Assembly (NCBI GenBank): GCA_903840435.1
Contig: CAIMFV010000006.1
Location: forward strand, 22,415 to 86,414
DNA length: 64,000 nucleotides
Reading direction: 5' to 3'
DNA from: an uncultured Caulobacterales bacterium
GTDB taxonomy: Bacteria > Pseudomonadota > Alphaproteobacteria > Caulobacterales > Caulobacteraceae
Made by a program: the position numbers and the translations under genes. Shown here in pieces: positions 42,381 to 61,464 of the stretch (position 1 is its first letter; every line of letters starts with the position of its first letter). The notes under the pieces were generated by a model. The model saw only the letters and a list, made by a program, of their open reading frames with translations, had not been told where the DNA came from and ran no database searches.

Positions 42381-43325
42381 TCATGCCGATTGCGCAAACG
42401 CTTTCAACAACTGATGCGCGATGGCGACGGGAGGGGGGCAGAAGGCGCCTGCGAAGGTTCCGGCCATTAGCGACTTGGCCTCGTCTCGGGTGAACCAGCG
42501 CACGGCCTCGAGCTCGGTCTGGTCGGGATGGGCTTCGCCGTCCTCGATCTCGGCAATCAGCCCGATCATCAGCGAGTTTGGAAAGGGCCAGGGTTGAGAC
42601 GAATGGTAACGGACAGCCTTGGTGACGAGGCCTGCCTCTTCTTTCAACTCGCGGGCGCAGGCCTCTTCGATAGACTCGCCGGGCTCTAAAAAGCCTGCCA
42701 AGGCTGACCACATGCCCGTTGGCCAAACGGCTTGGCGGCCGACCAAACACTTGTCTCCGACCACGGGCAGCATGATGACGACCGGGTCGGTGCGTGGGAA
42801 ATGTTCAACCTGACAGGCCGGGCAGACCCGTTTCCAGCCGCCGTCAGCCACCTCGCTCGGTTGACCACAGGCGGCGCAAAACCGGTGGCGGCGACGCCAT
42901 TCAAACACGCCCTTAGCTGTGGCGGCAATGCCCGCCTCCTGGCCTGAGAGCACGGCGCCCAGCCCGCGCAATTCGCGAAAGACGCCAAAGCCGTTTAACG
43001 GGCCCTGGCTGGGATCGGCGGCGCCGTCCAAATCAATGGCGAAGACCGGCGTCTCCTTCCACAACCCAAGAAACAACAGGCGCTCAAGGCCACCCGCCAA
43101 CTCCTGGCCAAGGCCTGGGGCAATATAGGCCAGCCGGGGCGCTTGGGGCGGGCTCCCGGCAACGGTCTCTTCGACCAATATCTGACCATTCCACAGCGGT
43201 AGGGCCAAGGCGTCGGGATGGGCGAGCAGCTTGGCGACAACAGAAGGGTCGCTGCGTAATTCACTGGCGCGGTTCAAGGGATTGCCAGCGAACACATTGA
43301 TCAGGGACATGGTGAGACGCTCCAC
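42381..43325 (-). CDS. nudC: NAD(+) diphosphatase
   Basis: CxxC...CxxC zinc ribbon followed by Nudix box GFLEPGESIEEACARELKEEAG. Confidence 0.85.
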   Translation of the reverse strand: MERLTMSLINVFAGNPLNRASELRSDPSVVAKLLAHPDALALPLWNGQILVEETVAGSPPQAPRLAYIAPGLGQELAGGLERLLFLGLWKETPVFAIDLDGAADPSQGPLNGFGVFRELRGLGAVLSGQEAGIAATAKGVFEWRRRHRFCAACGQPSEVADGGWKRVCPACQVEHFPRTDPVVIMLPVVGDKCLVGRQAVWPTGMWSALAGFLEPGESIEEACARELKEEAGLVTKAVRYHSSQPWPFPNSLMIGLIAEIEDGEAHPDQTELEAVRWFTRDEAKSLMAGTFAGAFCPPPVAIAHQLLKAFAQSA

Positions 43326-43406: not shown

Positions 43407-44417
43407 TCAGCCCTTGGGGCGTCGCTTGTGTGGCTCACCCCGTTCGCGCGCTTCGGAGAGCAAAGGCTGATTGTCGAAAGTATAGCGCAGCAAGGTCGCC
43501 TGTTCGATATTGACCAGGATTCGACAGGCTGTGGCCGCTTCCTCCGGCGTTGGCGTCGGCCCAAAGGCGGCGGCAAGTTTCGGTGTATAGTTGTCGCATT
43601 GAGCACGCCGGTAGCGCACGAAGGCGGGCCCGCTCTGACGGAATTCGCGTTCTGCAATATCGACAAGGTTTTGGGCTTCATCCCAGTCGTCGAGCACCCG
43701 CCTTACCCGGCGTTTGGCGCTGGCGAGCCGCGCAAGACTAAGCTGCTCCTGGCGCTGCAAACGAGCTGATCGATCCTCGCTCGTGCCAACCCTCCGCCAG
43801 ATATCCACCAAACGATAGGGGCCGCGCGGGTCGTCGCGCCCTGACTTCACACGCATGGGAGCCATGCCGACGGTTTCACGCAGCATCGAGCGCCTGCGCA
43901 GGTCCATCCAAAATTGACAGGCCCAGACCGATCGCTCGATATGCCATCGGTTTCCGACAGCCGAATAACTCAGCCGGTCACAATTGGCGTTGCGAAGTCT
44001 CTCATAGGCTCGGCTGGCCCACATATCGGAACGCGCCAGGGCGTTGCGGGCCGGTAGGCTTGATGGCTGCGATTGGGCCAAGGACAAGATGGCGCGATTG
44101 ACGCGATCCAAATTTGGCGAAAAGTGCTGCTGAATCTCAAACAGGCATTTATCGATCCCAACCTCTGACAAAATTGGGCAACCCTTGACGTCCTCTAAAA
44201 TATCATAAGACTCTTTGTATAGAAATGGAGATTCCTTCATCAGATTTAGGCGTAATTCTTGACCATACAGTTTTGAAATTGGGAAAAAGGCGGCAAAAAT
44301 CGACAATAAAGCAAAGGTAATATTTGATTTATTTCTGATATGAGGCTGTAAAATTCTTGCATTGATCTGATTATATCCGAATATAATTCGTTCGATTGCC
44401 AGCTGTGTCGCCTTCAT
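43407..44417 (-). CDS. Family A paralog 0: secreted double Cys-pair DUF1311/LprI-like protein (candidate immunity/lysozyme-inhibitor-like)
   Basis: Start placed at MKATQ (ATG 44417); hydrophobic N-terminal anchor; C-terminal half about 80-90% identical to other A copies (AFVRYRRAQCDNYTPKLAAA..ACRILVNIEQATLLRY). Confidence 0.7.
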   Translation of the reverse strand: MKATQLAIERIIFGYNQINARILQPHIRNKSNITFALLSIFAAFFPISKLYGQELRLNLMKESPFLYKESYDILEDVKGCPILSEVGIDKCLFEIQQHFSPNLDRVNRAILSLAQSQPSSLPARNALARSDMWASRAYERLRNANCDRLSYSAVGNRWHIERSVWACQFWMDLRRRSMLRETVGMAPMRVKSGRDDPRGPYRLVDIWRRVGTSEDRSARLQRQEQLSLARLASAKRRVRRVLDDWDEAQNLVDIAEREFRQSGPAFVRYRRAQCDNYTPKLAAAFGPTPTPEEAATACRILVNIEQATLLRYTFDNQPLLSEARERGEPHKRRPKG

Positions 44418-44554
44418 TTTGTTGGCGAGGGGCGTGTCAGACGATCCAGTCGATTGGCGAGCGTTATTGCTCTTGCGGGCAGACTTGCCCTCTATGCTCG
44501 CAAGCGCGTCCGGCTGAAACCACCGCCGCCGACGGGGCGACTTTTGCCCCTCTT

Positions 44555-45484
44555 TCATCGCCTGTCGCCTCGGCTGTGACCCGGACCGCGATGGGATTGC
44601 GACATCAAGGTATGGTTGTCGAAAAAGAAGCGTAACAAGGTCGCCTCCTCGACATTGAGGAGGGTGCGGCACGCAATCGCCGCCGCCTCGGGGCTTGGCC
44701 CAAAGGCAAGGGCGGCGGCAAGTTTTGGCGTATAGTCCTCGCATTGCGCCTTACGGTAATGAAGAAAGGCTGGGCCACTACGATGAAAATCGCGCGCCGC
44801 CTTATCTACAAAATCTTGGTACTCGTCCCAGTCGTCCAGCACGCGTTGAACGCGAAGCTTGGCGCGCTGCAAACGTTGGAGGCTCAAAACTTCTTGGAAT
44901 CTCAAATTTTCCAATTGGTCCGGACCCGTTCCAACTGTGTACCACAGGTCCGCTAGGCGATAAGGACCGCGCGGCCGGTTGCGCCCAGGCCTGATCGGCA
45001 GCGGCGCATCCCCAACCGCTTCACGCAGGAGCGAGCGCCGGCGCAGGTCCAACCAAAATTGACACGCCCAGATGGATCGGGACGCGCGCCAGCGACTTCC
45101 GACGGCGGAATAACTCAGACGGTTACACGTGTCGTAACGGAAGTTTCGGTAGGCCTGGCCTGCCTTTTGTGCAGCGGACGATAAGGCGAGCTGGAGGGAA
45201 GCATCGCTTTGCTTGCTCAACGCATTGGCGAGGGTCCGTCGTTCGACCTTGTCGCGCATGGGCGAAAAATGCTGCGCAAGTTTGAGCAGGCATTGATCAA
45301 TGCCAACCTCGGAAAACGCGGGGCATCCCTGTACATCCGCCAGAACATCACCCGGCTCCAGGTACAGAAAGCGAACGTCTTCGCGTGATGATAGATGGAA
45401 TTTGAATGTAGTCGCGTGACAAATTGGCGAAAAGGAAGAAAATATCCATAAAATTATGAGAGTTATGTACAGGTATTTTTTCAT
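44555..45484 (-). CDS. Family A paralog 1: secreted DUF1311/LprI-like protein
   Basis: Signal peptide MKKYLYITLIILWIFSSFSPICHA encoded by AT-rich DNA; 4-bp overlap with family B gene upstream. Confidence 0.75.
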   Translation of the reverse strand: MKKYLYITLIILWIFSSFSPICHATTFKFHLSSREDVRFLYLEPGDVLADVQGCPAFSEVGIDQCLLKLAQHFSPMRDKVERRTLANALSKQSDASLQLALSSAAQKAGQAYRNFRYDTCNRLSYSAVGSRWRASRSIWACQFWLDLRRRSLLREAVGDAPLPIRPGRNRPRGPYRLADLWYTVGTGPDQLENLRFQEVLSLQRLQRAKLRVQRVLDDWDEYQDFVDKAARDFHRSGPAFLHYRKAQCEDYTPKLAAALAFGPSPEAAAIACRTLLNVEEATLLRFFFDNHTLMSQSHRGPGHSRGDRR

Positions 45485-46245
45485 GGATACAATCGAATAT
45501 AATCAAGTATATATTGAATTTTTTCTGGATAATGTGTTAGTGTTTTTGTATTATATTTTTGTTGTAACAAATATTTATCTATATTTTTCCAGCTCAAAAT
45601 CACCCGTTCGACCCTCGCCTTTTGCACCTTCACCCTTTGGTGCGGGCGCAGAAGGGATGATCCATTCAGTCGGCGGAGGTGATCGGTGGTGCTGCCATAG
45701 ATTTTGGCGATTTTATCGAGCGTGTCGCCTTTGGCAGCCTCGACTTCAAATATTGGCGCGCCCGGTGCAATGACGGTGCGCATATCCGACTGCGAGGCTA
45801 TGGAAAGGACGTATCCTATGCCCGCGCGAATATTGTCCTGCGGATTGGAGGAGGCGCGGGCTGCTAAGCCGTTTTGCCATTGTGGGGGGATGATCACCGT
45901 ACCAGCGCCCTCGGGTTTGAGGAGGTCGCGCAAGCCCCCGTCGCCCGAATTACCGATATGCATGGGGCGGCTGTTCCACGTGACGTCTCCCGGGTCGTTT
46001 TCCGTCCACATCATCGCCTTCATCAGGGCGAAATCTGGCGAGCGATAGCCCGCGACGCCGCGCAGATTTCGGTCGTACTCGCCGATGGCGCTGCGAATGG
46101 CGCTCTCGTGATCGTGCCAATGCGGTCCTGGTACAAATGTGTCTGTACCGTCCATCCATCCGGACAGCCCGTCTGAAATATTAGACGGGCGTGCAGGGCG
46201 TTGCACTTTTAAGTTGGCGCGATGTTTCAGCGTTGTTTCGACCAT
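45481..46245 (-). CDS. Family B copy 2: SLT-type lytic transglycosylase-like domain + C-terminal LysM; no signal peptide (candidate peptidoglycan-degrading effector)
   Basis: LMKAMMWTENDPGD...RPMHIGNSGD...QDNIRAGIGYVL resembles SLT motifs (AIAWQESxFNP / GLMQI / ENIRAGxxYL); VEAAKGDTLDKIAKIYGSTTDHLRRLNGSS = LysM. Confidence 0.75.
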   Translation of the reverse strand: MVETTLKHRANLKVQRPARPSNISDGLSGWMDGTDTFVPGPHWHDHESAIRSAIGEYDRNLRGVAGYRSPDFALMKAMMWTENDPGDVTWNSRPMHIGNSGDGGLRDLLKPEGAGTVIIPPQWQNGLAARASSNPQDNIRAGIGYVLSIASQSDMRTVIAPGAPIFEVEAAKGDTLDKIAKIYGSTTDHLRRLNGSSLLRPHQRVKVQKARVERVILSWKNIDKYLLQQKYNTKTLTHYPEKIQYILDYIRLYP

Positions 46246-46332
46246 GGGAGCTCCAGATTTTACGGAGCGCGCGACGCAAATCTGCAGTCAAGCGCGGGAA
46301 ACCCTAACCGTTAGCCTGACTTGCGACGGTCT

Positions 46333-46354
46333 CGCGACGTGACACGTCGTCGCG
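46333..46354. repeat. Conserved palindrome CGCGACGTGACACGTCGTCGCG (stem CGCGACG/CGTCGCG) 3' of family A gene, 5' of family B gene
   Basis: Near-identical copies at 47445-47466 and 48814-48835; related palindromes at about 50122-50134 and 51950-51962. Confidence 0.6.
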
Positions 46355-46363
46355 CATGTAGGT

Positions 46364-47284
46364 CTACCGGCGGCTGCGCGTGTCGCCGGGCTTGCGGTCT
46401 TGCGACATCAAGGGTTGGTCCTGGAAGTCGTAGCGCAGCAAGGTCGCCTCTTCGATATTGACCAAGATACGACAGGCCATGGCGGCCTCGTCCGGCATTG
46501 GCGTCGGTCCAAAGGCGGCGGCGAGTTTCGGGGTATAGTCGTCGCATTGAGCATGGCGGTAGCGCATAAAGGCGGGCCCGCTCTGACGGAAGTCGCGTTC
46601 TGCAATGTCGACAAGGTGTTGGGCTTCATCCCAGTCGTCCAGCACCCGTCTTACCCGGCGTTTGGCGCTGGCGAGCCGCGCAAGACTAAGCTGCTCCTGG
46701 CGCTGCAAACGGGCCAGTCGATCCTCACCCGTCCCGACCCTCCGCCAAATATCTACCAAGCGATAGGGGCCATGTGGTCCGAAACGCTTCGCCTTCACCC
46801 GCAGGGGGGCCTCGCCCACAGTTTCTCGAAGCAAGGATCGGCGATGCAGGTCCATCCAGAATTGGCAGGCTAAAATCTCTCGGATCGTATGCATCCGATT
46901 TCCGACGGCCGAATGACCCAAGCGATTGCAATTGATAAATCGAAGCCTGTCATAGGTCATCGCGGCACGGTGATCTGAGCGGGAAAGGGCGGCGTGATCG
47001 GCCGGACTTAATCCTCGTATTTGCGCCTTTGACAGCACCGCCCTCTCGGTATGCTTGAGGCTGAGAGAAAAGTGCTGCTGAATTTCGGCCAGACATGCAT
47101 CAATCCCAGTTCCAGAGAAGCTAGGGCAATCACGGACATCGTCAAGCACGTCAAAAGATTCTACATAAAGAAAGGGAGATTCGGTTGCAGATTTTACACT
47201 GAAACTGGATGTCATTGCGCGCGACGAAGGGCAATAACAAAGGATAATACATAAAATAATTTGGATTTTTTGGTAAATGTTCAC
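46364..47284 (-). CDS. Family A paralog 2: secreted DUF1311/LprI-like protein
   Basis: Signal peptide MNIYQKIQIILCIILCYCPSSRA; conserved C-terminal half. Confidence 0.75.
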   Translation of the reverse strand: MNIYQKIQIILCIILCYCPSSRAMTSSFSVKSATESPFLYVESFDVLDDVRDCPSFSGTGIDACLAEIQQHFSLSLKHTERAVLSKAQIRGLSPADHAALSRSDHRAAMTYDRLRFINCNRLGHSAVGNRMHTIREILACQFWMDLHRRSLLRETVGEAPLRVKAKRFGPHGPYRLVDIWRRVGTGEDRLARLQRQEQLSLARLASAKRRVRRVLDDWDEAQHLVDIAERDFRQSGPAFMRYRHAQCDDYTPKLAAAFGPTPMPDEAAMACRILVNIEEATLLRYDFQDQPLMSQDRKPGDTRSRR

Positions 47285-47444
47285 GGACTAAATTTCACAA
47301 GCTTGCCAAGGTGTTTCTGGCCCATGTCAAGGTGTTTCTGGCCCATGTGTCGTTTTTCCCTCCATCCATGGGGCAATTCGGTTGAAATAATGTGAGGAGG
47401 GAACGAGGGAGTTTGCGAGCAGCAAACATGGTCGAGTTTGGTCT

Positions 47445-47466
47445 CGCCACGTGACACGTCGTCGCG
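47445..47466. repeat. Copy of conserved palindrome (CGCCACGTGACACGTCGTCGCG) downstream of family A paralog 3
   Basis: Sequence identity to 46333-46354 motif. Confidence 0.6.
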
Positions 47467-47475
47467 CAGCTTGGT

Positions 47476-48495
47476 TTAGCGCCGGTTGCGACTTTCACCG
47501 GGCTTGCGGTCTTGCGACATCAGGGGTTGGTGCGCGAAATCGTAGCGCAGCAGGGTCGCCTGTTCGATATTGACCAGGACGCGGCAGGCTGTGGCGGCTT
47601 CCTCCGGCGTTGGTGTCGGCCCAAGGGCGGCGGCGAGTTTCGGGGTATAGTCGTCGCATTGGGCGTGGCGGTAGCGCACGAAGGCCGGCCCGCTCTGACG
47701 GAAGTCGCGGTCGGCAATATCGACAAAATCTTGCCATTCCTCCCAATCGTCGAGCACGCGGCGGACCCGTCGCCGGGCGCTGGCCAATCGCCTCAGGCTG
47801 GCGGCTTCCTGGGATTTCAATTTCGATAATCGACCCGCTCCCGCGCCCGCGAGGCGCCAGATATCGGTCAAGCGATAGGGGCCGTGCGGACCGCCGTGGC
47901 CCGGCTTGATCCGCATCGGCGCCTCACCGGCCGTTTCTTGCAGCAGCGACCGCCGATGCAGGTCCATCCAAAATTGGCAGGCATAAACCCGCCTCAGCGT
48001 ATGCATCGTCGCGCCAGCCGCTGCGTGGCTCAGGCGATCACAATTGCTGTTCCGAAGCGCAAAATAGCTTGAAACGGCTTGCTTCTGAGACAGAAGGAGG
48101 GCGTCTTGCCCGCCAGTCCCGGTTGCACTTTGGGTGGCGCGACCCAGCACCTCTGAATCGACACGGATCAACCGTCCCGCAAGCCGTTGTTGGATTTCTT
48201 CAAAGCAAGCGTCATAATCGGTTTCAGAATATATTCCGCAACCCGTGACGTCGTTAATGACATCCCATGGTTCCCTATAGATAAATGGTGAATGGTAAAG
48301 GGCAGTCATATTTGGATGCCAGAGCTCTACATGCTTAGACAAAGAGATCGAATGGCAACACACTGAAATAATAATTATGGAAAAATATATTAGACTATGG
48401 ATATATTTTAATGTAATCGAGAATATATTGCAATTTTGCCGCGTAATCAACATCTGGATTCCCATTATAGTTTGATTGGAGGGAATTTTTATCAA
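47476..48495 (-). CDS. Family A paralog 3: secreted DUF1311/LprI-like protein (start uncertain; ORF overlaps remnant B gene by about 100 nt)
   Basis: Hydrophobic N-terminal region IYFSIIIISVCCHS; C-terminal half almost identical to paralog 4. Confidence 0.7.
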   Translation of the reverse strand: MIKIPSNQTIMGIQMLITRQNCNIFSITLKYIHSLIYFSIIIISVCCHSISLSKHVELWHPNMTALYHSPFIYREPWDVINDVTGCGIYSETDYDACFEEIQQRLAGRLIRVDSEVLGRATQSATGTGGQDALLLSQKQAVSSYFALRNSNCDRLSHAAAGATMHTLRRVYACQFWMDLHRRSLLQETAGEAPMRIKPGHGGPHGPYRLTDIWRLAGAGAGRLSKLKSQEAASLRRLASARRRVRRVLDDWEEWQDFVDIADRDFRQSGPAFVRYRHAQCDDYTPKLAAALGPTPTPEEAATACRVLVNIEQATLLRYDFAHQPLMSQDRKPGESRNRR

Positions 48496-48772
48496 TTGGT
48501 CTCCAGCCGAATATAACTCTCATAACTTTCGCCTTCTGCACTTTCACCTTTTGATGAGGGCGTAGAGCGGACGAGCCATTAAGTCGCCTTAAGTGATCGG
48601 TCGTGCTGCCATAGTGTCGGGCGATGGCGTCAAGTGCGTCACCTTTCGCCGCCTCGATCTCACAAATGCGCGTGCAGGGCGTTGCACTTTTAAGTTGGCG
48701 CGTCGTTTCAGCGTTGTTTCGACCAAGGGAGCTCCAGATTTTACGGAGCGCGCGACGCAAATCTGTAGTCAA
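48395..48772 (-). pseudogene. 5'-truncated family B remnant retaining only the LysM/C-terminal part
   Basis: EAAKGDALDAIARHYGSTTDHLRRLNGSS...QYILDYIKIYP matches C-terminal 100 aa of intact B copies; SLT part missing; conserved B 5' leader still present at 48748-48797. Confidence 0.6.
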
Positions 48773-48813
48773 GCGCGGGAAACCCTAACCATTAGCCTAG
48801 CTTGCAATAGTCT

Positions 48814-48835
48814 CGCCACGTGACATTGCGTCGCG
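48814..48835. repeat. Copy of conserved palindrome (CGCCACGTGACATTGCGTCGCG) downstream of family A paralog 4
   Basis: Sequence similarity to 46333-46354 motif. Confidence 0.55.
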
Positions 48836-48844
48836 CTCCATCGA

Positions 48845-49762
48845 CTACCTCCGGTTGCGACTTTCACCGGGCTTGCGCTCTCGCGACATCAGGGGTTGAT
48901 CCTCGAAGTCGTAGCGCAGCAAGGTCGCCTGTTCGATATTGACCAGGATGCGACAGGCTGTGGCGGCTTCCTCCGGCGTTGGCGTCGGCCCAAGGGCGGC
49001 AGTGAGTTTCGGGGTATAGTCGTCGCATTGAGCGCGCCGGTAACGCACAAAGGCGGGCCCGCTCTGACGGAAGTCGCGGTCGGCAATATCGACAAAATCT
49101 TGCCATTCGTCCCAATCGTCGAGCACGCGGCGGACCCGTCGTCGGGCGCTGGCTAATCGCCTCAGGCTGGTGGCTTCCTGGGATTTCAATTTCGATAATC
49201 GATCCGCTCCCGCGCCCGCGAGGCGCCAGATGTCGGTCAAGCGATAGGGGCCGTGCGGACCGCCGCGGCCCGGCTTGATCTGCATGGGCGCCTTACCAGC
49301 CGTTTCTTGCAGCAGCGACCGCCGATGCAGGTCCATCCAAAATTGGCAGGCGTGAACCTGCCTCAGCCTATGCATGGTTCCGCCAGCCGCTGCGTGGCTC
49401 AGCCGATCACAATTGATCAATCTTAGCTGCTTATAGGCGCGGGCCGCCCGCCTTCCAGACAAGATGAGAGCCGTCGTTGCGGAAAGGTCGGTTAGCCGCG
49501 TCTGCGCCTTCGACAGTATCGCTTGATCAAGGCGGCCCAATTTCGGTTCAAAACGGTGTTGAATTGCAATGAAGCATCTGTCTATGCCAGCTTCAGAATA
49601 GGATGGGCAACCTTCAATATCATTTAATATATCGTAGTATTCTCTGTATAAAAAGGGCGACTCTCGCAAAAAATTGAGACGGAGCTCCGGATTATGGGCG
49701 TCAACTGGGGAAAAATGGGAAAATGATATAAATATAAATAGAATAAAAATTGCAAATTTCAT
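48845..49762 (-). CDS. Family A paralog 4: secreted DUF1311/LprI-like protein
   Basis: Signal peptide MKFAIFILFIFISFSHFSPVDA; C-terminal half near-identical to paralog 3. Confidence 0.75.
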   Translation of the reverse strand: MKFAIFILFIFISFSHFSPVDAHNPELRLNFLRESPFLYREYYDILNDIEGCPSYSEAGIDRCFIAIQHRFEPKLGRLDQAILSKAQTRLTDLSATTALILSGRRAARAYKQLRLINCDRLSHAAAGGTMHRLRQVHACQFWMDLHRRSLLQETAGKAPMQIKPGRGGPHGPYRLTDIWRLAGAGADRLSKLKSQEATSLRRLASARRRVRRVLDDWDEWQDFVDIADRDFRQSGPAFVRYRRAQCDDYTPKLTAALGPTPTPEEAATACRILVNIEQATLLRYDFEDQPLMSRERKPGESRNRR

Positions 49763-50167
49763 GGGTAAAATCCGAGATGTTCAAGTTAATATTTCCATAT
49801 TCATCTAGATGTGACGCTATGCGCCCTTAAGTGATGTCTGGGGTGGAGCGGGGACGTTCCATTGAATGCCCGGCGAGGGGCGGCGGTGCTGCCATGGGTT
49901 TGGCTGATCCCATCCGAGGTATCCCCGAGACCTCCCGCCCCAGTGCCTTTGGGCCTAGTGGTTAAGGGCGCGAGGGGCAATTGGTCGATACTTTTGCCAA
50001 GCGAGTCGGGGATCACGGGTAAAGATGCCGCCCCTCTTAGATCGCCAGCCGTGCTGAGGCCTTCCAACAGCTTGGGGGAAGATATCTGAACCTCCATGGA
50101 CCATCGTTCGTCCAGATGACATGACGTCGCGTCACTCAAATTCCGAAGGTCGTCGAGCGGGCGGAGG
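49763..50167 (-). pseudogene. Highly decayed family B remnant (no intact reading frame)
   Basis: Nucleotide similarity to B LysM region (ggtgctgccatgggtttggctga vs ggtgctgccatagattttggcga of intact copy) but frameshifted; occupies the position where a B gene precedes each A gene. Confidence 0.4.
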
Positions 50168-51145
50168 TTATCCGTTTTGACGTCGTGAGTGTCCCTCGCC
50201 GCGCTTGCGCGCCTCAGAAAGCAGGGGTTGTCCGTCAAACGTGTAGCGCAGCAGGGTCGCCTCTTCGATATTGACCAGGATGCGACACGCCATGGCCGCT
50301 TCCCTCGGCGTCGGCCCCCTGCCAAGAGCGGCGGCAAGTTTTGGTGTGTAGTCGTCGCATTGGGCCTGACGGTAGCGCGCCAGGGCGGGCCAGCTTTGCC
50401 GGACGTCCTTCTCTGTGAGTTCAAAATATTTTTGCATCTCATCCCAGTCGTCCAGCACCCGCCTCACCCGCCGTTTGGCGCGCGCGAGCCGCGCGAGGCT
50501 GAGCCGTTCTTGAGCCTGTAAACGGGTCAATCGGTCGTCGCCCGAACCGGCGCGCCGCCAAATGTCCGCCAAGCGGTAGGGGCCGTGCGGGCCGTTACGC
50601 CTGGGCTTTACCCGCATGGGGGGCTCGCCATCCGTTTCTCGCAGCAGAGACCGTCGATGTAGGTCCATCCAAAATTGGCAGGCCCAAACCCCGCGCAGGG
50701 TATGCATTCTGCCGCCGTTTGATGAGCGTTGGAGATGATCACAATTTATCTGGCGTAGGTGAAGATAGGCCAGGGAGGCGCTTTGTTTTGCCTTTGACAG
50801 GATGTCTAGGGATGCTTTTTCGCCTGCCTCAGAGGCGGCGTTAGCGAAAACCTCTGCATCGACCTGGTTCAACTTGTCGGAAAGATGTTGGACAATCTCC
50901 TCAAAACAGGCATCGAGATCGCCTTCAGAATAAATTCCACATCCCGGTACATCATCAATTACGTCGTCCGGCTCTTGATAGAGAAATTTCGATTCATCTA
51001 ATAATTTAAAATCAGGGTGCCACAAGGCAATATGTTTCGCCCAAGCTGGACTCTGATACATAAATAAAAAACAAAGACAAAACAAAACGCCGATTTTAAG
51101 GGTATATTTTAATGTAATCAAGTATATATTGAACTTTTTCTTCAT
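50168..51145 (-). CDS. Family A paralog 5: secreted DUF1311/LprI-like protein; start overlaps 3' end of family B copy 1 by about 50 nt in another frame
   Basis: Signal peptide KIGVLFCLCFLFMYQSPAWA; conserved C-terminal half. Confidence 0.75.
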   Translation of the reverse strand: MKKKFNIYLITLKYTLKIGVLFCLCFLFMYQSPAWAKHIALWHPDFKLLDESKFLYQEPDDVIDDVPGCGIYSEGDLDACFEEIVQHLSDKLNQVDAEVFANAASEAGEKASLDILSKAKQSASLAYLHLRQINCDHLQRSSNGGRMHTLRGVWACQFWMDLHRRSLLRETDGEPPMRVKPRRNGPHGPYRLADIWRRAGSGDDRLTRLQAQERLSLARLARAKRRVRRVLDDWDEMQKYFELTEKDVRQSWPALARYRQAQCDDYTPKLAAALGRGPTPREAAMACRILVNIEEATLLRYTFDGQPLLSEARKRGEGHSRRQNG

Positions 51146-51860
51146 AGTGCGCTCCTGCTTTTCGATTGTATTTATCTTTCAAGAGTTTTTTATCAATTGT
51201 GTCCCAGCCGAATATCACTCTCATAACTTTCGCCTTCTGCACTTTCACCTTTTGATGAGGGCGTAGAGCGGACGATCCATTTAGTCGCCTTAAGTGATCT
51301 GTCGTGCTGCCATAGTGTCGGGCGATGGCGTCAAGTGTGTCACCTTTCGCGGCCTCGATCTCAAATATGGGTGCACCTGGCTCCACAACCGTCCTGAGGT
51401 CCGACTGCGAGGCCACGACAAGGACATAGCCAATCGCTGCGCGAATGTTATCCTGCGGGTTCGAAGTGGCACTCGCGGATAACCGTTCCTGCCACTGAGC
51501 TGGGACGATGATCTTTCCCGCTCCGTTTGGCCTGAGAACGTCGCGCAAGCCGGGATCACCGGAATTACCAATTTGCATGGGCCGTCTGTTCCAACTCGGA
51601 TCGCCGGGGTCGTTTTCCGCCCAAATTATGGCTTTCATCAACGAAAAGTCGGGGGAGCGATATCCCGCGACGCCGCGCAGATTTCGATCATAGTCTTTGA
51701 TGGTCGTCCGAATCTCACTTTCATAATCCCGCCAGTGCGGTCCGGGAACGTTTCTATCAACGCCGTCCATCCACTTCGCCAAACCCGGCGGAACATTGGC
51801 CGAGCGCACGGGTCGTTGCACCTTGGGTTTTGCAGGATGTTTAACCGCTGTTTCGGCCAT
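51096..51860 (-). CDS. Family B copy 1: SLT-type lytic transglycosylase-like + LysM protein, no signal peptide; first gene of the array
   Basis: Start placed at MAETAVKHPAKPKVQRP (ATG 51860) matching start of copy 2; ORF-track extension to 52214 would overlap SRP RNA and is rejected. Confidence 0.75.
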   Translation of the reverse strand: MAETAVKHPAKPKVQRPVRSANVPPGLAKWMDGVDRNVPGPHWRDYESEIRTTIKDYDRNLRGVAGYRSPDFSLMKAIIWAENDPGDPSWNRRPMQIGNSGDPGLRDVLRPNGAGKIIVPAQWQERLSASATSNPQDNIRAAIGYVLVVASQSDLRTVVEPGAPIFEIEAAKGDTLDAIARHYGSTTDHLRRLNGSSALRPHQKVKVQKAKVMRVIFGWDTIDKKLLKDKYNRKAGAHYEEKVQYILDYIKIYP

Positions 51861-52038
51861 TGGGGCTCCAGAGCTCATGGAGCGCGCGGCGCAATTTTGC
51901 GACCCCGCGCACGAAACCCTAATTTCTAGCCTCCCTCGCATCGCCCTTGCCATGTGACATGGCGTCGCGGCGCGGTGGTGATGGCGCGGGATGCGAGCGC
52001 TTACGGCCCTTGCTAAGCGCAGGCTTGCGCGCGATATA

Positions 52039-52144
52039 GGCGGTGGAGACTGGCGCCGGGCGCAGCCCTCGCCAACCCGGTCAGGTCCGGAAGGAAGCAG
52101 CCGTAACGAGTTTCGCGGCGGGTCGGCGTCCAGTCTCCACCCCA
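52039..52144 (+). ncRNA. ffs: Signal recognition particle RNA (4.5S-type SRP RNA)
   Basis: Contains conserved domain IV sequence GGUCAGGUCCGGAAGGAAGCAGCC; terminal helix GGUGGAGACUGG...CCAGUCUCCACC; canonical position immediately upstream of dnaX. Confidence 0.8.
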
Positions 52145-56216: not shown

Positions 56217-58430
56217 TTGAGGTCGTATCGCGTGATTACAGGTAGGCGTTTTGTCGGGTCTCAAAGCGGGCGCCGATATCGCACTTCGCTCTATGCCAGT
56301 GTGGCGCTGAACCTCGTCCTGCTCTCACCAGCACACGCGGCCTTGCGGGCGCAGGCCGCCCAGGTCGATCCCAACGCGCAAAGCGAAGTGATTTCGCCCA
56401 GCCTCACGCACGGCGCCTCGTCAACCTTGGCGCCGGATATTTTGAGCTTGCCGACCGGGGCGGTGAATTCGCCACCGCCCAAGTCCGCCCCGACCCTCCC
56501 CGCGCCGTCGACGCTTCCGCTGACACCCCCTGCGGTCCAGGACGTCCCCCCGCCGGTCATGGCGACACACGCGCCAGCACCGCCAGAGATAGCGCCGCTT
56601 CGAGACCCGCCTTCAGCCGCTCTGGCTGAAACACCGCGCCTCGATCCGGTTGCGTCACCGCCACAGACTGAACTCGCCCATGTTGCGGCGCCTCCTCCGG
56701 CGGAGCTTGAAATGTCAAGCGCGCCAGCTCAGGAGGTCACGCCAGCGGGCGGCGATCCGCCGGCCTTGGTGTTCGATATTGGCGGACCGGCCGAGCCGAT
56801 TTTGCGCGGCGCCTCTGGCGGCTCCGGCGACCCTCCGACCATGGTCTTCTCCGATCAGAACGCTCCGCGCAAAATGGATCTTGCAGCGAAGCGGCCCGCG
56901 CCTGCGGACCAGGGGGGCGATCCGGCGCCGAAATCCTTGCGTCTCGCACGCAAGGGGTCTGACGCGATTTTGCCGGTGCTCGGGTCGGCCGATCTCAGTT
57001 CGGTAATTGATGTCGTCTTCCCCGCGACTGGGCCAAACGCGGAGCGTGCAGACGGCGGTCGCACGGCGGATCGCAGGCTGGCCATTATTCCGCTCACGCC
57101 ACCTTCGCCGGATGAGCCCGACGATTCCCGCGAAACCATCGACACCCTGACCCTAGGCGACTATGTGGCCAGATCGGTGCGCCACAGCGAAGATTTAGCC
57201 GCTGACGGACAGGCCCTGACCGCCGCCAAGTATCAGGCGATCAACCGCTTGACTCAGCTTGGGCCCCATTTCGAGTTTCACGCCGATCAAGGTCACGAGC
57301 ACTCCTATTCCTCAGTCGGCACAACGCCCGTCGGCTTTCCGAACCATTTGCGCACCGATGCGCTGGCGACGATGAGCCAACCCCTGTTCGATCCGGTGGT
57401 CTTGGCCTCGCTGGACCGCGACCGGGAGGATGTGCGCGCCGCAGAAATGAAACGCCGCATGACCGAAGTGAATGTCGCCTATGAGGCGGTGTCGGCCTAT
57501 TTTGATCTGTTGGACGCAAGGCTTCAGCTTGAGCTCGCCTCGGGTCATTTGAAGCGGATGACCGATCTGGTCGGCTACATGACGCGCCGTACCGACCTCG
57601 GCGGCGCCAGTGATGCTGATCTTGAACGCGTCAAGGTTGTGGCGCTCACCGCCGAACGCAGCGAGATCGATGCAAAAGGGGCATTGGACGCCGCCCTGTC
57701 CACCCTACACCGACTGACAGGCATTACCGCCGTTCAACTTGCTGCACCGAGCAGCGTGCAACCGTCCTTGCCTGACGATTCCGACACCGCCTTTGCCCGA
57801 CTTGTCAAAACCAACCCTGATGTCCGCTGGGCCTATATCCAAATCAAGATTGCCCATGACGACAGCCTTGCGAGTTTTGCCCAGACCCTCCCGAAGGTCA
57901 CTTTCGACTTGGGGCGTTTTGTCGGCGTCAATGCCAGTGGCGCCAAGGGCTCGACGGTTGATGATCGCGCGCTGATCTCCGCGGTGTGGTCATTCGGTGC
58001 AGGCTCAGAGCTTGCGCAAGCCCGCTCCCAAGCCGCCCATCAGAATGAAATGAAGCACCGCTATTACAGCATTTTGCGGACAGCCAACGATCACCTGCAT
58101 ACGGCCTATTTGACCTTAAAGAGCCTTGATGGCCAACGCCTCGTCGCGTGGAAAGAGCTTCGTGCCAATAACAAGGTGACGGCGGCATTTGACGAACAGT
58201 TGTTCGCCGCCAATCGATCCCTCCTCGACGTACTCGATACCTACCAAAAATATTACCAGTCTAAAGCTAACCTCGTGCATCTCACGATCACCCAGATCAA
58301 GACCGCCTATCAGGTGCGCCAGTTGATCGGCGATCTGAACCAAGACAGTCTTGGCGACGACGCGATCCTTTCTGCCTCCGAGGTGGCGCAAGCGTCTGCC
58401 TCGGATGCTCCGGTGCGGAGCGCCCACTAA
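56217..58430 (+). CDS. TolC-family outer-membrane channel protein with long Pro/Ala-rich N-terminal extension
   Basis: Signal peptide; about 250-aa low-complexity PAPS-rich region; C-terminal 450 aa with TolC-like alternating coiled-coil/beta pattern; start uncertain. Confidence 0.55.
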   Translation: MRSYRVITGRRFVGSQSGRRYRTSLYASVALNLVLLSPAHAALRAQAAQVDPNAQSEVISPSLTHGASSTLAPDILSLPTGAVNSPPPKSAPTLPAPSTLPLTPPAVQDVPPPVMATHAPAPPEIAPLRDPPSAALAETPRLDPVASPPQTELAHVAAPPPAELEMSSAPAQEVTPAGGDPPALVFDIGGPAEPILRGASGGSGDPPTMVFSDQNAPRKMDLAAKRPAPADQGGDPAPKSLRLARKGSDAILPVLGSADLSSVIDVVFPATGPNAERADGGRTADRRLAIIPLTPPSPDEPDDSRETIDTLTLGDYVARSVRHSEDLAADGQALTAAKYQAINRLTQLGPHFEFHADQGHEHSYSSVGTTPVGFPNHLRTDALATMSQPLFDPVVLASLDRDREDVRAAEMKRRMTEVNVAYEAVSAYFDLLDARLQLELASGHLKRMTDLVGYMTRRTDLGGASDADLERVKVVALTAERSEIDAKGALDAALSTLHRLTGITAVQLAAPSSVQPSLPDDSDTAFARLVKTNPDVRWAYIQIKIAHDDSLASFAQTLPKVTFDLGRFVGVNASGAKGSTVDDRALISAVWSFGAGSELAQARSQAAHQNEMKHRYYSILRTANDHLHTAYLTLKSLDGQRLVAWKELRANNKVTAAFDEQLFAANRSLLDVLDTYQKYYQSKANLVHLTITQIKTAYQVRQLIGDLNQDSLGDDAILSASEVAQASASDAPVRSAH

Positions 58431-59131
58431 TGGCCGGGGGGTCCGATCCCCAAGGCGGGCAGAACTATTGGCCCGGCTTCGTCGACGCCTTGTCGAACAT
58501 GGTCATGGCGATGATTTTCCTCGTCCTGATCTTTGCAGCGGTGCTGTTCAACGCCATGCAAAATACCAGTCGCGCTGCCAATATGAAGAACACCGAAGCG
58601 CTGGAGCGGAAAACCAAAGAAAACGATGAGTTGCGCAAGCTTGTCGCAACGCTTTCCACGCAATTGCAAAGCCGATCCTGTGCCGTTCCGGCGGTCAGCG
58701 CCCAAGGCATCGCCGCGCCCGATAGTTTAATCAAAAGCGCTGAAACCGTCGCCAATGAAGGGCAGTTTCAAGCCGATACCAACGCGAAGGGGCCCTTGCC
58801 GCCGACGGTACGGGGGACCGGTGCCTTCTTGACCGTCGACTACCACTCACAATCCGTCACCTTGGACACCGCCGCCAAGGCTGCCCTCGATGCTGCCTTA
58901 GCGCGCGACCATATCGGTCGCGGGGTGGGTCGGGTCGAGATTATTGCCGAACAGGTCTCCGCCACCGGAGGCGCGACCGACGCCGAGCGTAATGCCTTCT
59001 TCCGCGCGCTGTCACTGCGCAATCAGTTTCTGGCCGAAGGGTGGAAGCCCAGCGACATCGTCGTGAAGCTGCCCTATCGCGAGAACGGGTCCGGTCCGGC
59101 GCGCGCCTTCATCCGCATATCGCAAAATTGA
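58430..59131 (+). CDS. MotB/OmpA-family protein (N-terminal TM anchor, C-terminal OmpA-like peptidoglycan-binding domain)
   Basis: WPGFVDALSNMVMAMIFLVLIF resembles MotB N-terminus; C-terminal OmpA-like block; start codon overlaps TolC-like stop. Confidence 0.6.
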   Translation: MAGGSDPQGGQNYWPGFVDALSNMVMAMIFLVLIFAAVLFNAMQNTSRAANMKNTEALERKTKENDELRKLVATLSTQLQSRSCAVPAVSAQGIAAPDSLIKSAETVANEGQFQADTNAKGPLPPTVRGTGAFLTVDYHSQSVTLDTAAKAALDAALARDHIGRGVGRVEIIAEQVSATGGATDAERNAFFRALSLRNQFLAEGWKPSDIVVKLPYRENGSGPARAFIRISQN

Positions 59132-59144
59132 GTAAGCCCGGCCG

Positions 59145-60473
59145 ATGAGTACACCCGTGTTAAACCTGTCCAGCAGGACCCGCCGCACGACCGGAGATTG
59201 GATTTCGGTTTGGTTCGATCTTGAGCGCGAGCATACGCCCTTACCCGCCCTGTTTGCGGCGGTTTTCGGCCTCGCGGCCTTTGTCACCTATGCCTGCCTC
59301 GCCAAGGTCGACCGAGTGGTGCAGGGCCAAGGGCGGGTGGTGCCGAGCGAAAGCACCCAGACGATCCAGCACCTGGAAGGGGGCATGATTTCGCAGATTC
59401 TGGTTTCTGAGGGCCAGACGGTGAAAAAGGGCGACCTGCTGGCGCGGGTTCGCGACCTCGATGCCACTGATGCTTTGAATGAAAACCAGGTCAAGGGGCT
59501 TGCTCTTCGTGCCCGAGTGGCGCGGTTGGAAGCCGAAGCGAGTGGCGCAGGCGCGGTGCAAATTCCTCCTGGCCTCAGTGCGCAAACGCCAGAAATGGCG
59601 TCAGAATTGGCAACTTTTCGTGCCCGCCGTTTGACCCGAGACGAGGCGGCCGCCAGCCAAAGAGCTGCACTCGATCAAAAGCGCGGCGAGTATGGCGAGG
59701 CTAATCAAAAACTGACCAATTATCGGGCCGAGCATGAGACCGCGCTGAAACAGCTGTCGGTAATGACCAGTCTGCGCAACGCTCATGCCGCATCGCAGAT
59801 CGAGCTTCTCGACGCCCAGGCCCGCGAGCAACGGCTTGACAGTCTGATCCGTGAAACCTCAGCGCTGCTGCCGGGTTTGCGCGCCGCCATTGATGAGGCG
59901 TCGTCGCGGTTGAGCCAGGGGGAGGCGCAATTCCGATCCGAGGCAGCGGCGGAACTGACCGCTTCCAAGGTTGAGTTGATGCGCTCTGATGTGGACAGGC
60001 GCGGCGTCGCGGATCGGCTAAGCCGAACCGATGTGCGGGCCCCGACCGACGGGGTGGTCAACCACATATTGGTGAAAACGGTCGGCGGGGTCATTCGCCC
60101 TGGCGAGCCCTTGATGGAATTGACCCCTATGGGCGGGCCGCTGGTGATTGAGGGGCGGGTTCGGCCGGGAGATCGGGGAGAATTGCGACCGGGTCTGGAT
60201 GCGTCGGTGCGGATCAACGCCTATGACTATGGCGCGCTGGGCGGGCTTCCCGCCCGGCTTGACGATATCAGCGCCGATACCTTGGCCGATGAGCGTGGCG
60301 AGCGATATTATCGATTGAAATTAACCGTACGCCGGGAAAAGCTTTCCGGCCTTACGGTCTATCCGGGGATGACCACCACGGTCAATGTGGTGGTGGGGCG
60401 TCGCGCCATCATCCAATATTTGCTCTCGCCTGTGTTTCACTTCGCTGACGTGGCGCTGAAAGAGGCCAAGTAG
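59145..60473 (+). CDS. HlyD-family type I secretion periplasmic adaptor (membrane fusion protein)
   Basis: N-terminal TM, biotinyl-lipoyl-like hairpin (VVPSESTQTIQHLEGGMISQILVSEGQTVKKGDLLARV), long coiled coil, C-terminal beta domain. Confidence 0.8.
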   Translation: MSTPVLNLSSRTRRTTGDWISVWFDLEREHTPLPALFAAVFGLAAFVTYACLAKVDRVVQGQGRVVPSESTQTIQHLEGGMISQILVSEGQTVKKGDLLARVRDLDATDALNENQVKGLALRARVARLEAEASGAGAVQIPPGLSAQTPEMASELATFRARRLTRDEAAASQRAALDQKRGEYGEANQKLTNYRAEHETALKQLSVMTSLRNAHAASQIELLDAQAREQRLDSLIRETSALLPGLRAAIDEASSRLSQGEAQFRSEAAAELTASKVELMRSDVDRRGVADRLSRTDVRAPTDGVVNHILVKTVGGVIRPGEPLMELTPMGGPLVIEGRVRPGDRGELRPGLDASVRINAYDYGALGGLPARLDDISADTLADERGERYYRLKLTVRREKLSGLTVYPGMTTTVNVVVGRRAIIQYLLSPVFHFADVALKEAK

Positions 60474-60486
60474 CTGCGCGACCTGA

Positions 60487-61464
60487 CTAGAAGGCGGTCG
60501 GGCTTTCCGCTTTCGGGTCATTATAGGTTAGGGCCAGAAAGACGTCTTCCAGGTCCGGCTCTTCGGTGGACAGGTCTTTAATCCCGACGCCCGCCGCCTT
60601 CACAGCATTGAGCACATCCTCAACCGACGCCTGGTCGGATTTGAAGGTGATGGCAAGCCGTCCATCTGGGCGCAGCTTCGCCTCAAAGCCCTGGAGGCGC
60701 GGCGCGGCGGTGAGGGGGGCCAAGGGTTGGATAATGACCGCGCGGCTGTCCAATCGCTTCAACAGATCCGCGGTCGGTTCACAGGCGACGACCTGCCCCC
60801 GGTTAATGATGGCGATTTGATCGCAGAGCTCTTGCGCCTCTTCAAGATAGTGGGTGGTGAGCACAATGGTCACGCCAGCGGCGTTCAACTCGCGAACATA
60901 GGCCCAAAGCTGGCGGCGCAGCTCGACATCGACACCGGCGGTCGGCTCGTCAAGGATAAGCACAGGCGGATTGTGCACCAGGGCCTTGGCCACCATCAGC
61001 CGGCGTTTCATGCCGCCGGAAAGCTGGCGCACATAGGCTTCCGCCTTATCGCCGAGCCCAAGGGCGTTTAAAATCTCAAGACTGCGGCGTTCTGCCCTGG
61101 GCACGCCATAAAGCCCTGCCTGTACCTCAAGACTTTCCCGAGGGGTGAAGAAGAAGTCGGCAGCGATTTCCTGCGGCACGACGCCGATGGCGGCACGGGC
61201 GGATCTCGGCTGTTGATCAATATCGAGCCCCCAGACCTTGACCTCTCCGGAGGTCTTGCGAACAAGGCCTGCCAAGATGTTGATAAAGGTCGATTTGCCC
61301 GCGCCATTCGGTCCAAGCAGTCCAAAAATCGATCCGCGCGGGATGCTGAGGTCGACACCGCGCAAAGCCTCCTTGGCGGGCGAGGTTTTGCTCGCCGGAT
61401 AGGTTTTGGTCAGCCCTCGGGCAGTGATGGCGTCGTCGGGCAGGTCGTCAGTCGAAAAGGCCAT
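60487..61464 (-). CDS. ABC transporter ATP-binding protein (ABC-2/NosF-like with C-terminal extension); no permease gene adjacent
   Basis: Walker A GPNGAGKST, LSGGMKRR signature, Walker B ILDEPT. Confidence 0.85.
   Translation of the reverse strand: MAFSTDDLPDDAITARGLTKTYPASKTSPAKEALRGVDLSIPRGSIFGLLGPNGAGKSTFINILAGLVRKTSGEVKVWGLDIDQQPRSARAAIGVVPQEIAADFFFTPRESLEVQAGLYGVPRAERRSLEILNALGLGDKAEAYVRQLSGGMKRRLMVAKALVHNPPVLILDEPTAGVDVELRRQLWAYVRELNAAGVTIVLTTHYLEEAQELCDQIAIINRGQVVACEPTADLLKRLDSRAVIIQPLAPLTAAPRLQGFEAKLRPDGRLAITFKSDQASVEDVLNAVKAAGVGIKDLSTEEPDLEDVFLALTYNDPKAESPTAF

Follow-up and report, generated by a model that had tools for sequence, protein, structure and literature searches.

A conserved 20-nt motif, a candidate regulatory DNA site, at the unit heads of a putative effector-immunity array in an uncultured Caulobacterales bacterium

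Background

Peptidoglycan glycosidase effectors paired with immunity proteins, e.g. Tse3-Tsi3 and Tge-Tgi, are weapons of interbacterial antagonism. The attC sites of integrons are imperfect inverted repeats of 57-141 nt with R''/L''-L'/R' boxes and RYYYAAC/GTTRRRY cores, which form a folded single-strand hairpin, and palindromes of the REP/BIME type are dispersed in many copies over intergenic regions genome-wide, often in both orientations. The rAID-1 arrays of Bacteroidales consist of co-oriented immunity genes with repeated conserved intergenic motifs; they are defined by an adjacent tyrosine recombinase of the XerD family and hold unrelated orphan immunity genes (10.1101/471110; PMC12247911). 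DUF1311/LprI has been noted as an immunity domain (PMC12135965).

The stretch of DNA analyzed here (64,000 nt from an uncultured Caulobacterales bacterium; hereafter the window) contains, at 43407-51860 on the minus strand, what we consider a previously undescribed putative effector-immunity system. An initial annotation of the window had drawn attention to a recurring palindromic element at the gene junctions of this array, for which it offered three options, a transcription-factor operator, an RNA processing or attenuator hairpin, or a recombination substrate driving array expansion.

Results and discussion

Organization of the array

The array is flanked on the left by nudC (42381-43325, minus strand) and on the right by the SRP RNA gene (ffs; 52044-52142, plus strand; Rfam, 60 bits), which is followed by dnaX-ybaB-recR. 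All array genes are on the minus strand and transcribed from high to low coordinates, in the order m1-B1-A5 / m2-decayed B-like ORF-A4 / m3-truncated B-A3 / m4-A2 / m5-B2-A1-B remnant::A0, where A and B denote two families of paralogues and m1 to m5 the copies of the motif described below. The first gene, B1 (51096..51860; 254 aa), encodes a putative peptidoglycan-degrading effector without a signal peptide, with an N-terminal lysozyme-like (lytic-transglycosylase-like) domain that includes an invariant E82 and a PMQIGNSGDPGL block, and with a C-terminal LysM domain. Its 3' end is overlapped by the start of A5 (50168..51145; 325 aa), which encodes a putative periplasmic immunity protein with a signal peptide and a helical tandem DUF1311/LprI-like fold. 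The second unit starts with a degenerate B-like ORF (49801..50100; labelled 'C?'), which retains a LysM-like 'GSTAAPRRAFNGTS' stretch when its translation is compared with B by eye and is probably a decayed B gene, followed by the immunity paralogue A4 (48845..49762; 305 aa), whose sequence was taken for the structure model. The truncated B gene of the third unit (48395..48772) has lost its catalytic domain, its original ATG is now TTG and only the LysM part is left; it precedes the immunity paralogue A3 (47476..48453; 325 aa as called in the public record). Another immunity paralogue, A2 (46364..47284), forms the fourth unit; it may start either with GTG at 47284 or with ATG near 47197. The fifth unit comprises B2 (45481..46245; 254 aa), the second intact effector paralogue with 71% identity to B1, the immunity paralogue A1 (44555..45484; 309 aa) and the array's last gene, A0 (43407..44558; called with 383 aa in the public record), in which a C-terminal B remnant (KATQLAIERIIFGYNQI...) is joined in frame to an A paralogue and whose ATG overlaps the A1 stop codon.

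B, which lacks a signal peptide, has the fold of a lysozyme-like glycosidase plus a LysM domain; A carries a signal peptide, measures about 305 aa and folds as a tandem DUF1311/LprI protein. Structural matches of B include lytic transglycosylases as well as Tse3 and Tge, which are T6SS effectors. These features of A and B together suggest that the array is made up of effector-immunity cassettes, most plausibly of peptidoglycan-glycosidase effectors accompanied by paralogous immunity proteins of the periplasm, both roles being predicted. What characterizes a peptidoglycan-hydrolase effector/immunity pair was found here, namely a catalytic domain of the lysozyme superfamily and an adjacent periplasmic protein with a DUF1311/LprI fold. 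The likeness to pairs of the Tse3-Tsi3 and Tge-Tgi type also extends to adjacent or overlapping genes and to the occurrence of immunity paralogues in arrays. In contrast to these pairs, A has a tandem DUF1311 arrangement, B carries no secretion-system marker domain, and the two families are extremely rare, with 5 and 10 clusters in a total of 5.8 billion proteins. T6SS or T4SS genes were not detected in the window. A few kb past recR (56217-61464) there are type-I-secretion-like genes for a TolC-like OEP, a 233-aa protein, an AprE/HlyD-type adaptor and an ABC ATPase, the names of the latter two being taken from the annotation of the syntenic locus L007.

Distant B homologues were found at loci L003 and L005, and the motif is absent upstream of both. 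At L003 (408-4893) a B homologue of 38% identity is followed by a single-domain LprI (DUF1311) protein, and a gene with an X-Tfes XVIPCD domain is located about 2 kb away. The XVIPCD domain typifies the effectors of type IV secretion systems that kill bacteria, and this neighbour hints at a delivery route in that organism.

At every B-3'/A-5' junction, where the A signal peptides are encoded, the G+C content drops to 0.34-0.44 compared with a background of about 0.6-0.66 (about 44100-44500, 45300-45700, 47100-47300, 48300-48500, 49500-49900 and 50900-51300). Matches of a sigma-70 promoter scan on the minus strand fall mostly into these AT-rich junctions, and the A genes may thus have their own promoters inside the B 3' ends. 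The divergently oriented SRP RNA gene has a good TTGCTA-N17-GATATA promoter just upstream (52005-52142), and m1 is situated about 75 nt from its start.

By analogy, rAID-1 is the closest described counterpart of the overall arrangement: co-oriented immunity-type genes, a short conserved intergenic motif, low-G+C patches and a gene content that varies between strains occur in both. However, the recombinase that defines rAID-1 was not found here. A Pfam scan of the long ORFs in about 10 kb to the left (7 ORFs) and about 7 kb to the right of the array (3 ORFs other than dnaX, ybaB and recR) detected no recombinase, integrase (including intI and XerD-family recombinases) or regulator gene; the neighbours are housekeeping genes, and the array head directly abuts ffs/dnaX. 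Also different from rAID-1, the array contains paralogues of one family, has retained intact effectors and sits in a housekeeping setting (nudC, array, ffs-dnaX-ybaB-recR).

A motif at the 5' edge of each unit

In gene sense (the minus strand of the window), the motif reads CGCGACG-NNN-TGTCA(C/T)-N-T(G/C)G. This 20-nt sequence occurs five times in the 64-kb window, each time inside the array and in the same orientation, and nowhere else in the window. Copy m1 (CGCGACGCCATGTCACATGG; 51950..51969, minus strand) stands at the array head, 89 nt 5' of the B1 ATG, where an upstream A gene is absent and the left side is the ffs promoter region. The most degenerate copy, m2 (CGCGACGTCATGTCATCTGG; 50112..50131, minus strand), is located 14 nt ahead of the ATG of the degenerate B-like ORF. 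Copies m3 (CGCGACGCAATGTCACGTGG; 48816..48835), m4 (CGCGACGACGTGTCACGTGG; 47447..47466) and m5 (CGCGACGACGTGTCACGTCG; 46335..46354), likewise on the minus strand, follow the stop codons of A4, A3 and A2, respectively; m3 is succeeded by the leader of the truncated B gene, m4 by a leader unrelated to the B leader and then by A2, and m5 stands 89 nt 5' of the B2 ATG. Across all copies, the distance to the next start ranges from 14 to about 200 nt. Between stop codon and 20-nt motif there are 9 nt in the case of A2, A3 and A4 and 36 nt in that of A5, and not 20-45 nt as initially annotated.

Neither A1 (at the A1-A0 junction) nor A0 is followed by the motif in the window; a presumed degenerate copy 3' of the last A gene was dismissed because its 9/20 matches are at chance level. 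A copy thus precedes the first unit, where an A gene is missing, and none comes after the last A gene; this assigns the motif to the 5' boundary of each duplicated unit, with which the number of copies (n for n units) agrees. A re-derived scan pattern (CGCGACG-N3-TGTCA-N2-T-N-G, gene sense) matched all 5 copies with 0 substitutions, gave no window match at 1-2 substitutions, and matched 5 unrelated window sites at 3 substitutions; the chance expectation for exact motif matches is 8e-4 per 64 kb.

The degenerate pattern of the initial annotation proved exact at three sites (46333-46354, 47445-47466 and 48814-48835; 0 mismatches, with none of 100 dinucleotide shuffles matching), and the two related sites it had suspected could be recovered, one at 51948-51969 with 2 mismatches and one as a weaker fifth copy at 50112-50131. 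Its description of near-identical 22-bp palindromes did not hold, as a good 22-bp palindrome is present only at 46333-46354, the copy at 51950 contains a perfect one of 13 bp and the others are imperfect. The position it gave stands once the strand is considered: with all genes on the minus strand, the element is 3' of A stop codons and 5' of B. The larger conserved B leader in which the element was said to be embedded is found after 3 of the 5 copies (51950, 48816 and 46335) and is missing after 47447 and 50112. This leader (46246..46334, minus strand, at B2) contains the conserved blocks AGGCTA, TTAGGGTTTC and TTGCGYCGCGCGCTCC and a GCUCC...GGAGC stem, and sequence comparison identified its homologues at 51861-51949 and about 48729-48815 (minus strand).

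Conservation in related lineages and occurrence elsewhere

Syntenic loci of metagenomic origin are available from a strain with 98.5-99.9% identity to the window (L007, L008, L133, L134) and from a related lineage, here called G, with about 90-93% identity (L001 and L002, overlapping each other by 1,940 nt, and L137). The motif is present at every unit head in both sets of relatives, in the same orientation and without substitution at the fixed positions; after the last A gene in L002 there is none. An anchored alignment of 11 sites yielded a mean frequency of the commonest base of 0.93 in the motif, compared with 0.66 in the 45 nt to its left and 0.57 in the 50 nt to its right. At 14 of the 20 motif positions no variation was seen across the 11 sites, and two more vary at one site only. 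The motif is thus an island of conservation within diverged flanks.

It is conceivable that the motif has no function and is merely the first 20 nt of a duplicated segment, looking conserved as a result of recent duplication or gene conversion. Its left edge is by definition the duplication junction, the copies are all paralogues from essentially two, closely related lineages, and the A1-A0 junction has lost the motif without visible consequence. However, the 9-nt spacer directly left of the motif and the last approximately 25 coding nt of A are variable, so that gene conversion of the A 3' region cannot explain the conservation of the motif; spacer, A tails and leaders have diverged to about 50-65% column identity. 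Moreover, between orthologous copies of the window and lineage G substitutions are confined to the free NNN positions, and the motif was spared in three independent leader replacements or deletions. We therefore assign little probability to a motif without function. The premise shared by the three options of the initial annotation, a functional cis element, is supported by the conservation island, by the copy at the array head that lacks an A gene and by the four non-homologous right flanks 3' of the motif (the B leader, the A2 leader, the leader of the 'X' cassette described below and the decayed B gene). These comparisons speak for a selected, orientation-fixed cis element and against a chance repeat.

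The array content differs between strains. B1 is intact only in the strain of the window; in the others 551 nt (51383-51933; leader and catalytic domain) are swapped for an unrelated sequence of 125 nt (L007 9639-9763; L001 about 6668-6790), which begins 16 nt after m1 and leaves a LysM-only ORF of 112 aa. An extra 'X' cassette, consisting of its own leader and a 324-aa A paralogue, is found after A2 in L007 (14771-15840) and after the A4 orthologue in L001 (8707-9882); its absence from the window illustrates this variation.

Wider scans with the strict motif gave 60 matches in 185,579 species genomes (among which the window's own genome is seemingly not included), 61 in JGI metagenomes and 1 in IMG/VR, all of them single sites in unrelated taxa and about as many as expected by chance (approximately 70 estimated for the genome scan). 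No A or B homologue was found at the 121 genome and metagenome loci, and no motif cluster outside this locus in the species genomes or JGI metagenomes. A repeat of the REP/BIME type was considered and rejected, because in about 189 kb of lineage sequence (overlapping loci included) all copies are in the array and in one orientation.

Lack of a conserved fold

The hairpin option of the initial annotation found no support. The region of m5 (46333-46354) has arms of 7 bp and also contains a perfect 15-bp palindrome, CGACGTG-T-CACGTCG; it is the only copy with the full 7-bp-arm palindrome. In m1 a palindrome of 13 bp, CCATGTCACATGG, is perfect but offset by one base in register, and good palindromes are thus limited to one or two copies. 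When 9 copies were folded singly, their minimum-free-energy structures differed and were no better than those of shuffled sequences (z -2.3 to +0.7); compensatory changes were not observed, and an aligned fold of 4 B leaders showed no covariation at the motif. A conserved RNA or DNA hairpin was rejected on these grounds. The invariant positions are arranged asymmetrically (CGCGACG, a free 3-nt spacer, TGTCA, then a fixed T and G further on), and TGG at positions 18-20 is retained even where it is unable to pair with positions 8-10, which fits a read-out of sequence and not base pairing. The conserved property is an asymmetric primary sequence with a partial dyad centred on GT-N-AC.

Nevertheless, the motif could act at the RNA level, as a short stem-loop or a recognition site for a protein or RNase just past each A cistron in read-through transcripts, where it would stabilize the preceding immunity mRNA at its 3' end or guide the processing of transcripts between units. 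Consistent with this, the motif lies exactly 9 nt past three A stop codons and is in sense orientation without exception, some stem of 5-8 bp is possible at every copy, and one-sided changes at positions 10 and 17 yield G-U pairs on the sense strand only. However, besides the variable folds, m1 has no upstream cistron and both A1 and the last A gene lack the motif. The only Rfam match in the window is the SRP RNA, with none at the motif, and a scan for intrinsic terminators yielded no terminator-like match at any copy. The sequences 3' of the copies (CGAGAC, CAAGGG, TCTAAA, ACGAAC) include no U-tract; together with the negative scan and the position of m1 this also led us to discard the motif as an intrinsic terminator. 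We consider an RNA-level element unlikely.

Two further candidates were rejected. CGCGACG could pair over a distance with a CGTCGCG that follows some 80 nt further on, but this partner exists only in the homologous B leaders, and the 7-mer is common (approximately 25 per strand per 64 kb). A hidden small ORF was suggested by the frame RR[H/N/R]VTW, in which the variable positions 8, 9-10 and 17 would be synonymous (8 and 17) or conservative in all copies; most copies lack a start codon, so that we treat this frame as a coincidence, the downstream peptide is not conserved, and no ORF with a start codon spans the motif.

Rearrangements of the array

The motif might also be a site at which a recombinase encoded elsewhere excises, inserts or reorders effector-immunity cassettes. 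Every cassette is bounded by direct repeats, the X cassette occupies a different array position in lineage G, and homology between cassette types ends 0-7 nt from the 3' end of the motif. Left flanks assort independently of right flanks: an A2 tail left of the motif is common to the window and L007, and it is joined to the B2 leader in the window and to the X leader in L007. The rAID-1 arrays provide a precedent for conserved intergenic motifs (10.1101/471110; PMC12247911). However, the gene before the B2 unit in the strain of L007 and L008 has a tail identical to that of A2 (L133/L134), and with this second gene an unequal homologous crossover within the conserved A 3' regions of about 600 bp suffices. 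The apparent motif-precise exchange is thus equally explained by homologous crossover and need not be invoked. Other breakpoints between lineages are off the motif, e.g. those of the A5::decayed-B and A2::A0 fusions and of the B1 deletion or replacement. Furthermore, there are n and not n+1 motifs for n units, with none past the last cassette, no recombinase was found among the scanned ORFs, and motif clusters are absent from every other genome and metagenome scanned.

Compared with integron attC/attI sites, the motif copies are similar in being imperfect palindromes, in their direct orientation at cassette boundaries and in the presence of a first copy at the array head. In contrast to attC, the motif measures only 20 nt, has neither RYYYAAC/GTTRRRY cores nor an R/L box architecture, its flanks are not conserved and the 9 folded copies have no fold in common; in contrast to integrons, intI was not found in the scanned flanks and the cassettes are paralogues that arose by duplication. 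Taken together, we regard a recombination site as improbable. Still more doubtful is its extended form, in which the motif would be the crossover site of a distantly encoded recombinase that excises, captures and reorders cassettes, i.e. an integron- or rAID-like system in a freshwater alphaproteobacterium; such a system would need no integrase next to it and would use a site of 20 nt that has no relation to attC. If the motif were a recombination site, it would represent a second, independent example of integron-like cassette dynamics in arrays for interbacterial defence.

A candidate regulatory DNA site

The operator remains the best of the three options of the initial annotation, and we tentatively favour, as a possibility still short of probable, that the motif is a cis-regulatory DNA site to which a protein binds and which each duplicated unit has inherited; both the DNA-binding protein as ligand and the effect on transcription are inferred. 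Like generic duplicated operators, i.e. repressor or activator sites of 15-20 bp with a partial dyad, the motif is of appropriate size, has a GT-N-AC core and, at m1, the palindrome mentioned above, is fixed in orientation and position at the unit heads, and is conserved in sequence and not in structure. The GT-N-AC core presumably resembles that of GntR-type operators, which we take as a lead only. It differs from duplicated operators in its additional asymmetric CGCGACG block, in the lack of a cognate regulator gene near the array and in the lack of an adjacent promoter match.

The putative operator would have arisen as part of an ancestral unit consisting of the motif, a leader, B (a lysozyme-like LysM effector) and A (a periplasmic immunity protein of the DUF1311/LprI type). 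Such units would have been multiplied and reshuffled as they were duplicated in tandem and underwent unequal homologous crossover in the conserved 3' halves of the A genes, and B genes and leaders would later have decayed or been replaced in several of them. Purifying selection would have retained the 20-nt motif as coordinator of the expression of every unit, with a regulator encoded elsewhere in the genome binding it at the upstream edge of each transcription unit.

Several observations argue against an operator. In addition to the missing regulator gene, the small number of lineages and the paralogous nature of the copies, the distance to the next start varies, m2 leaves no room for a promoter ahead of the next ORF, and no sigma-70 match is found beside the motif. 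A sigma-70 promoter at the motif itself was rejected on either strand, as the scan had 0 matches there and an antisense GTGACA-N17 lacks a -10 box by eye. The B1 and B2 leaders share, 3' of the motif, a weak sigma-70-like TTAGGG-N17-CA(A/G)A(A/T)T recognized by eye, which, if it were a promoter, would place the motif near -70. A sigma-54 promoter that includes the TGG of the motif (TGGCAC-N5-TTGCW; GG-N10-GC) fits only some of the copies preceding a B leader and was discarded: by eye, GG-N10-GC is present at m1, m3 and the lineage G copy before B, whereas GG is lost at m5 (TCG) and the -12 GC is missing at m2, m4 and the X-type copies. The -35/-10 spacing of ECF-type promoters did not fit by eye.

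As an operator, the motif would mark a lineage-specific regulon of undescribed peptidoglycan-degrading effectors and tandem-DUF1311 immunity proteins and would offer a simple handle for finding its regulator. As it stands, the motif is a neat case of purifying selection on a short non-coding element within a rapidly rearranging array of paralogues, real but fairly ordinary.

Two further features of the leaders were noted. At the 3' end of the B1 and B2 leaders (51861-51890 and 46246-46275, minus strand), the GCUCC...GGAGC stem pairs with the Shine-Dalgarno sequence just ahead of the ATG, with loops that differ between the two, and this stem could serve in translational control of the effector. 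The A2 leader contains a perfect 21-bp tandem duplication (CAAGGTGTTTCTGGCCCATGT x2; 47307-47348), which is present as a single copy in the related lineage (L002, near 2060).
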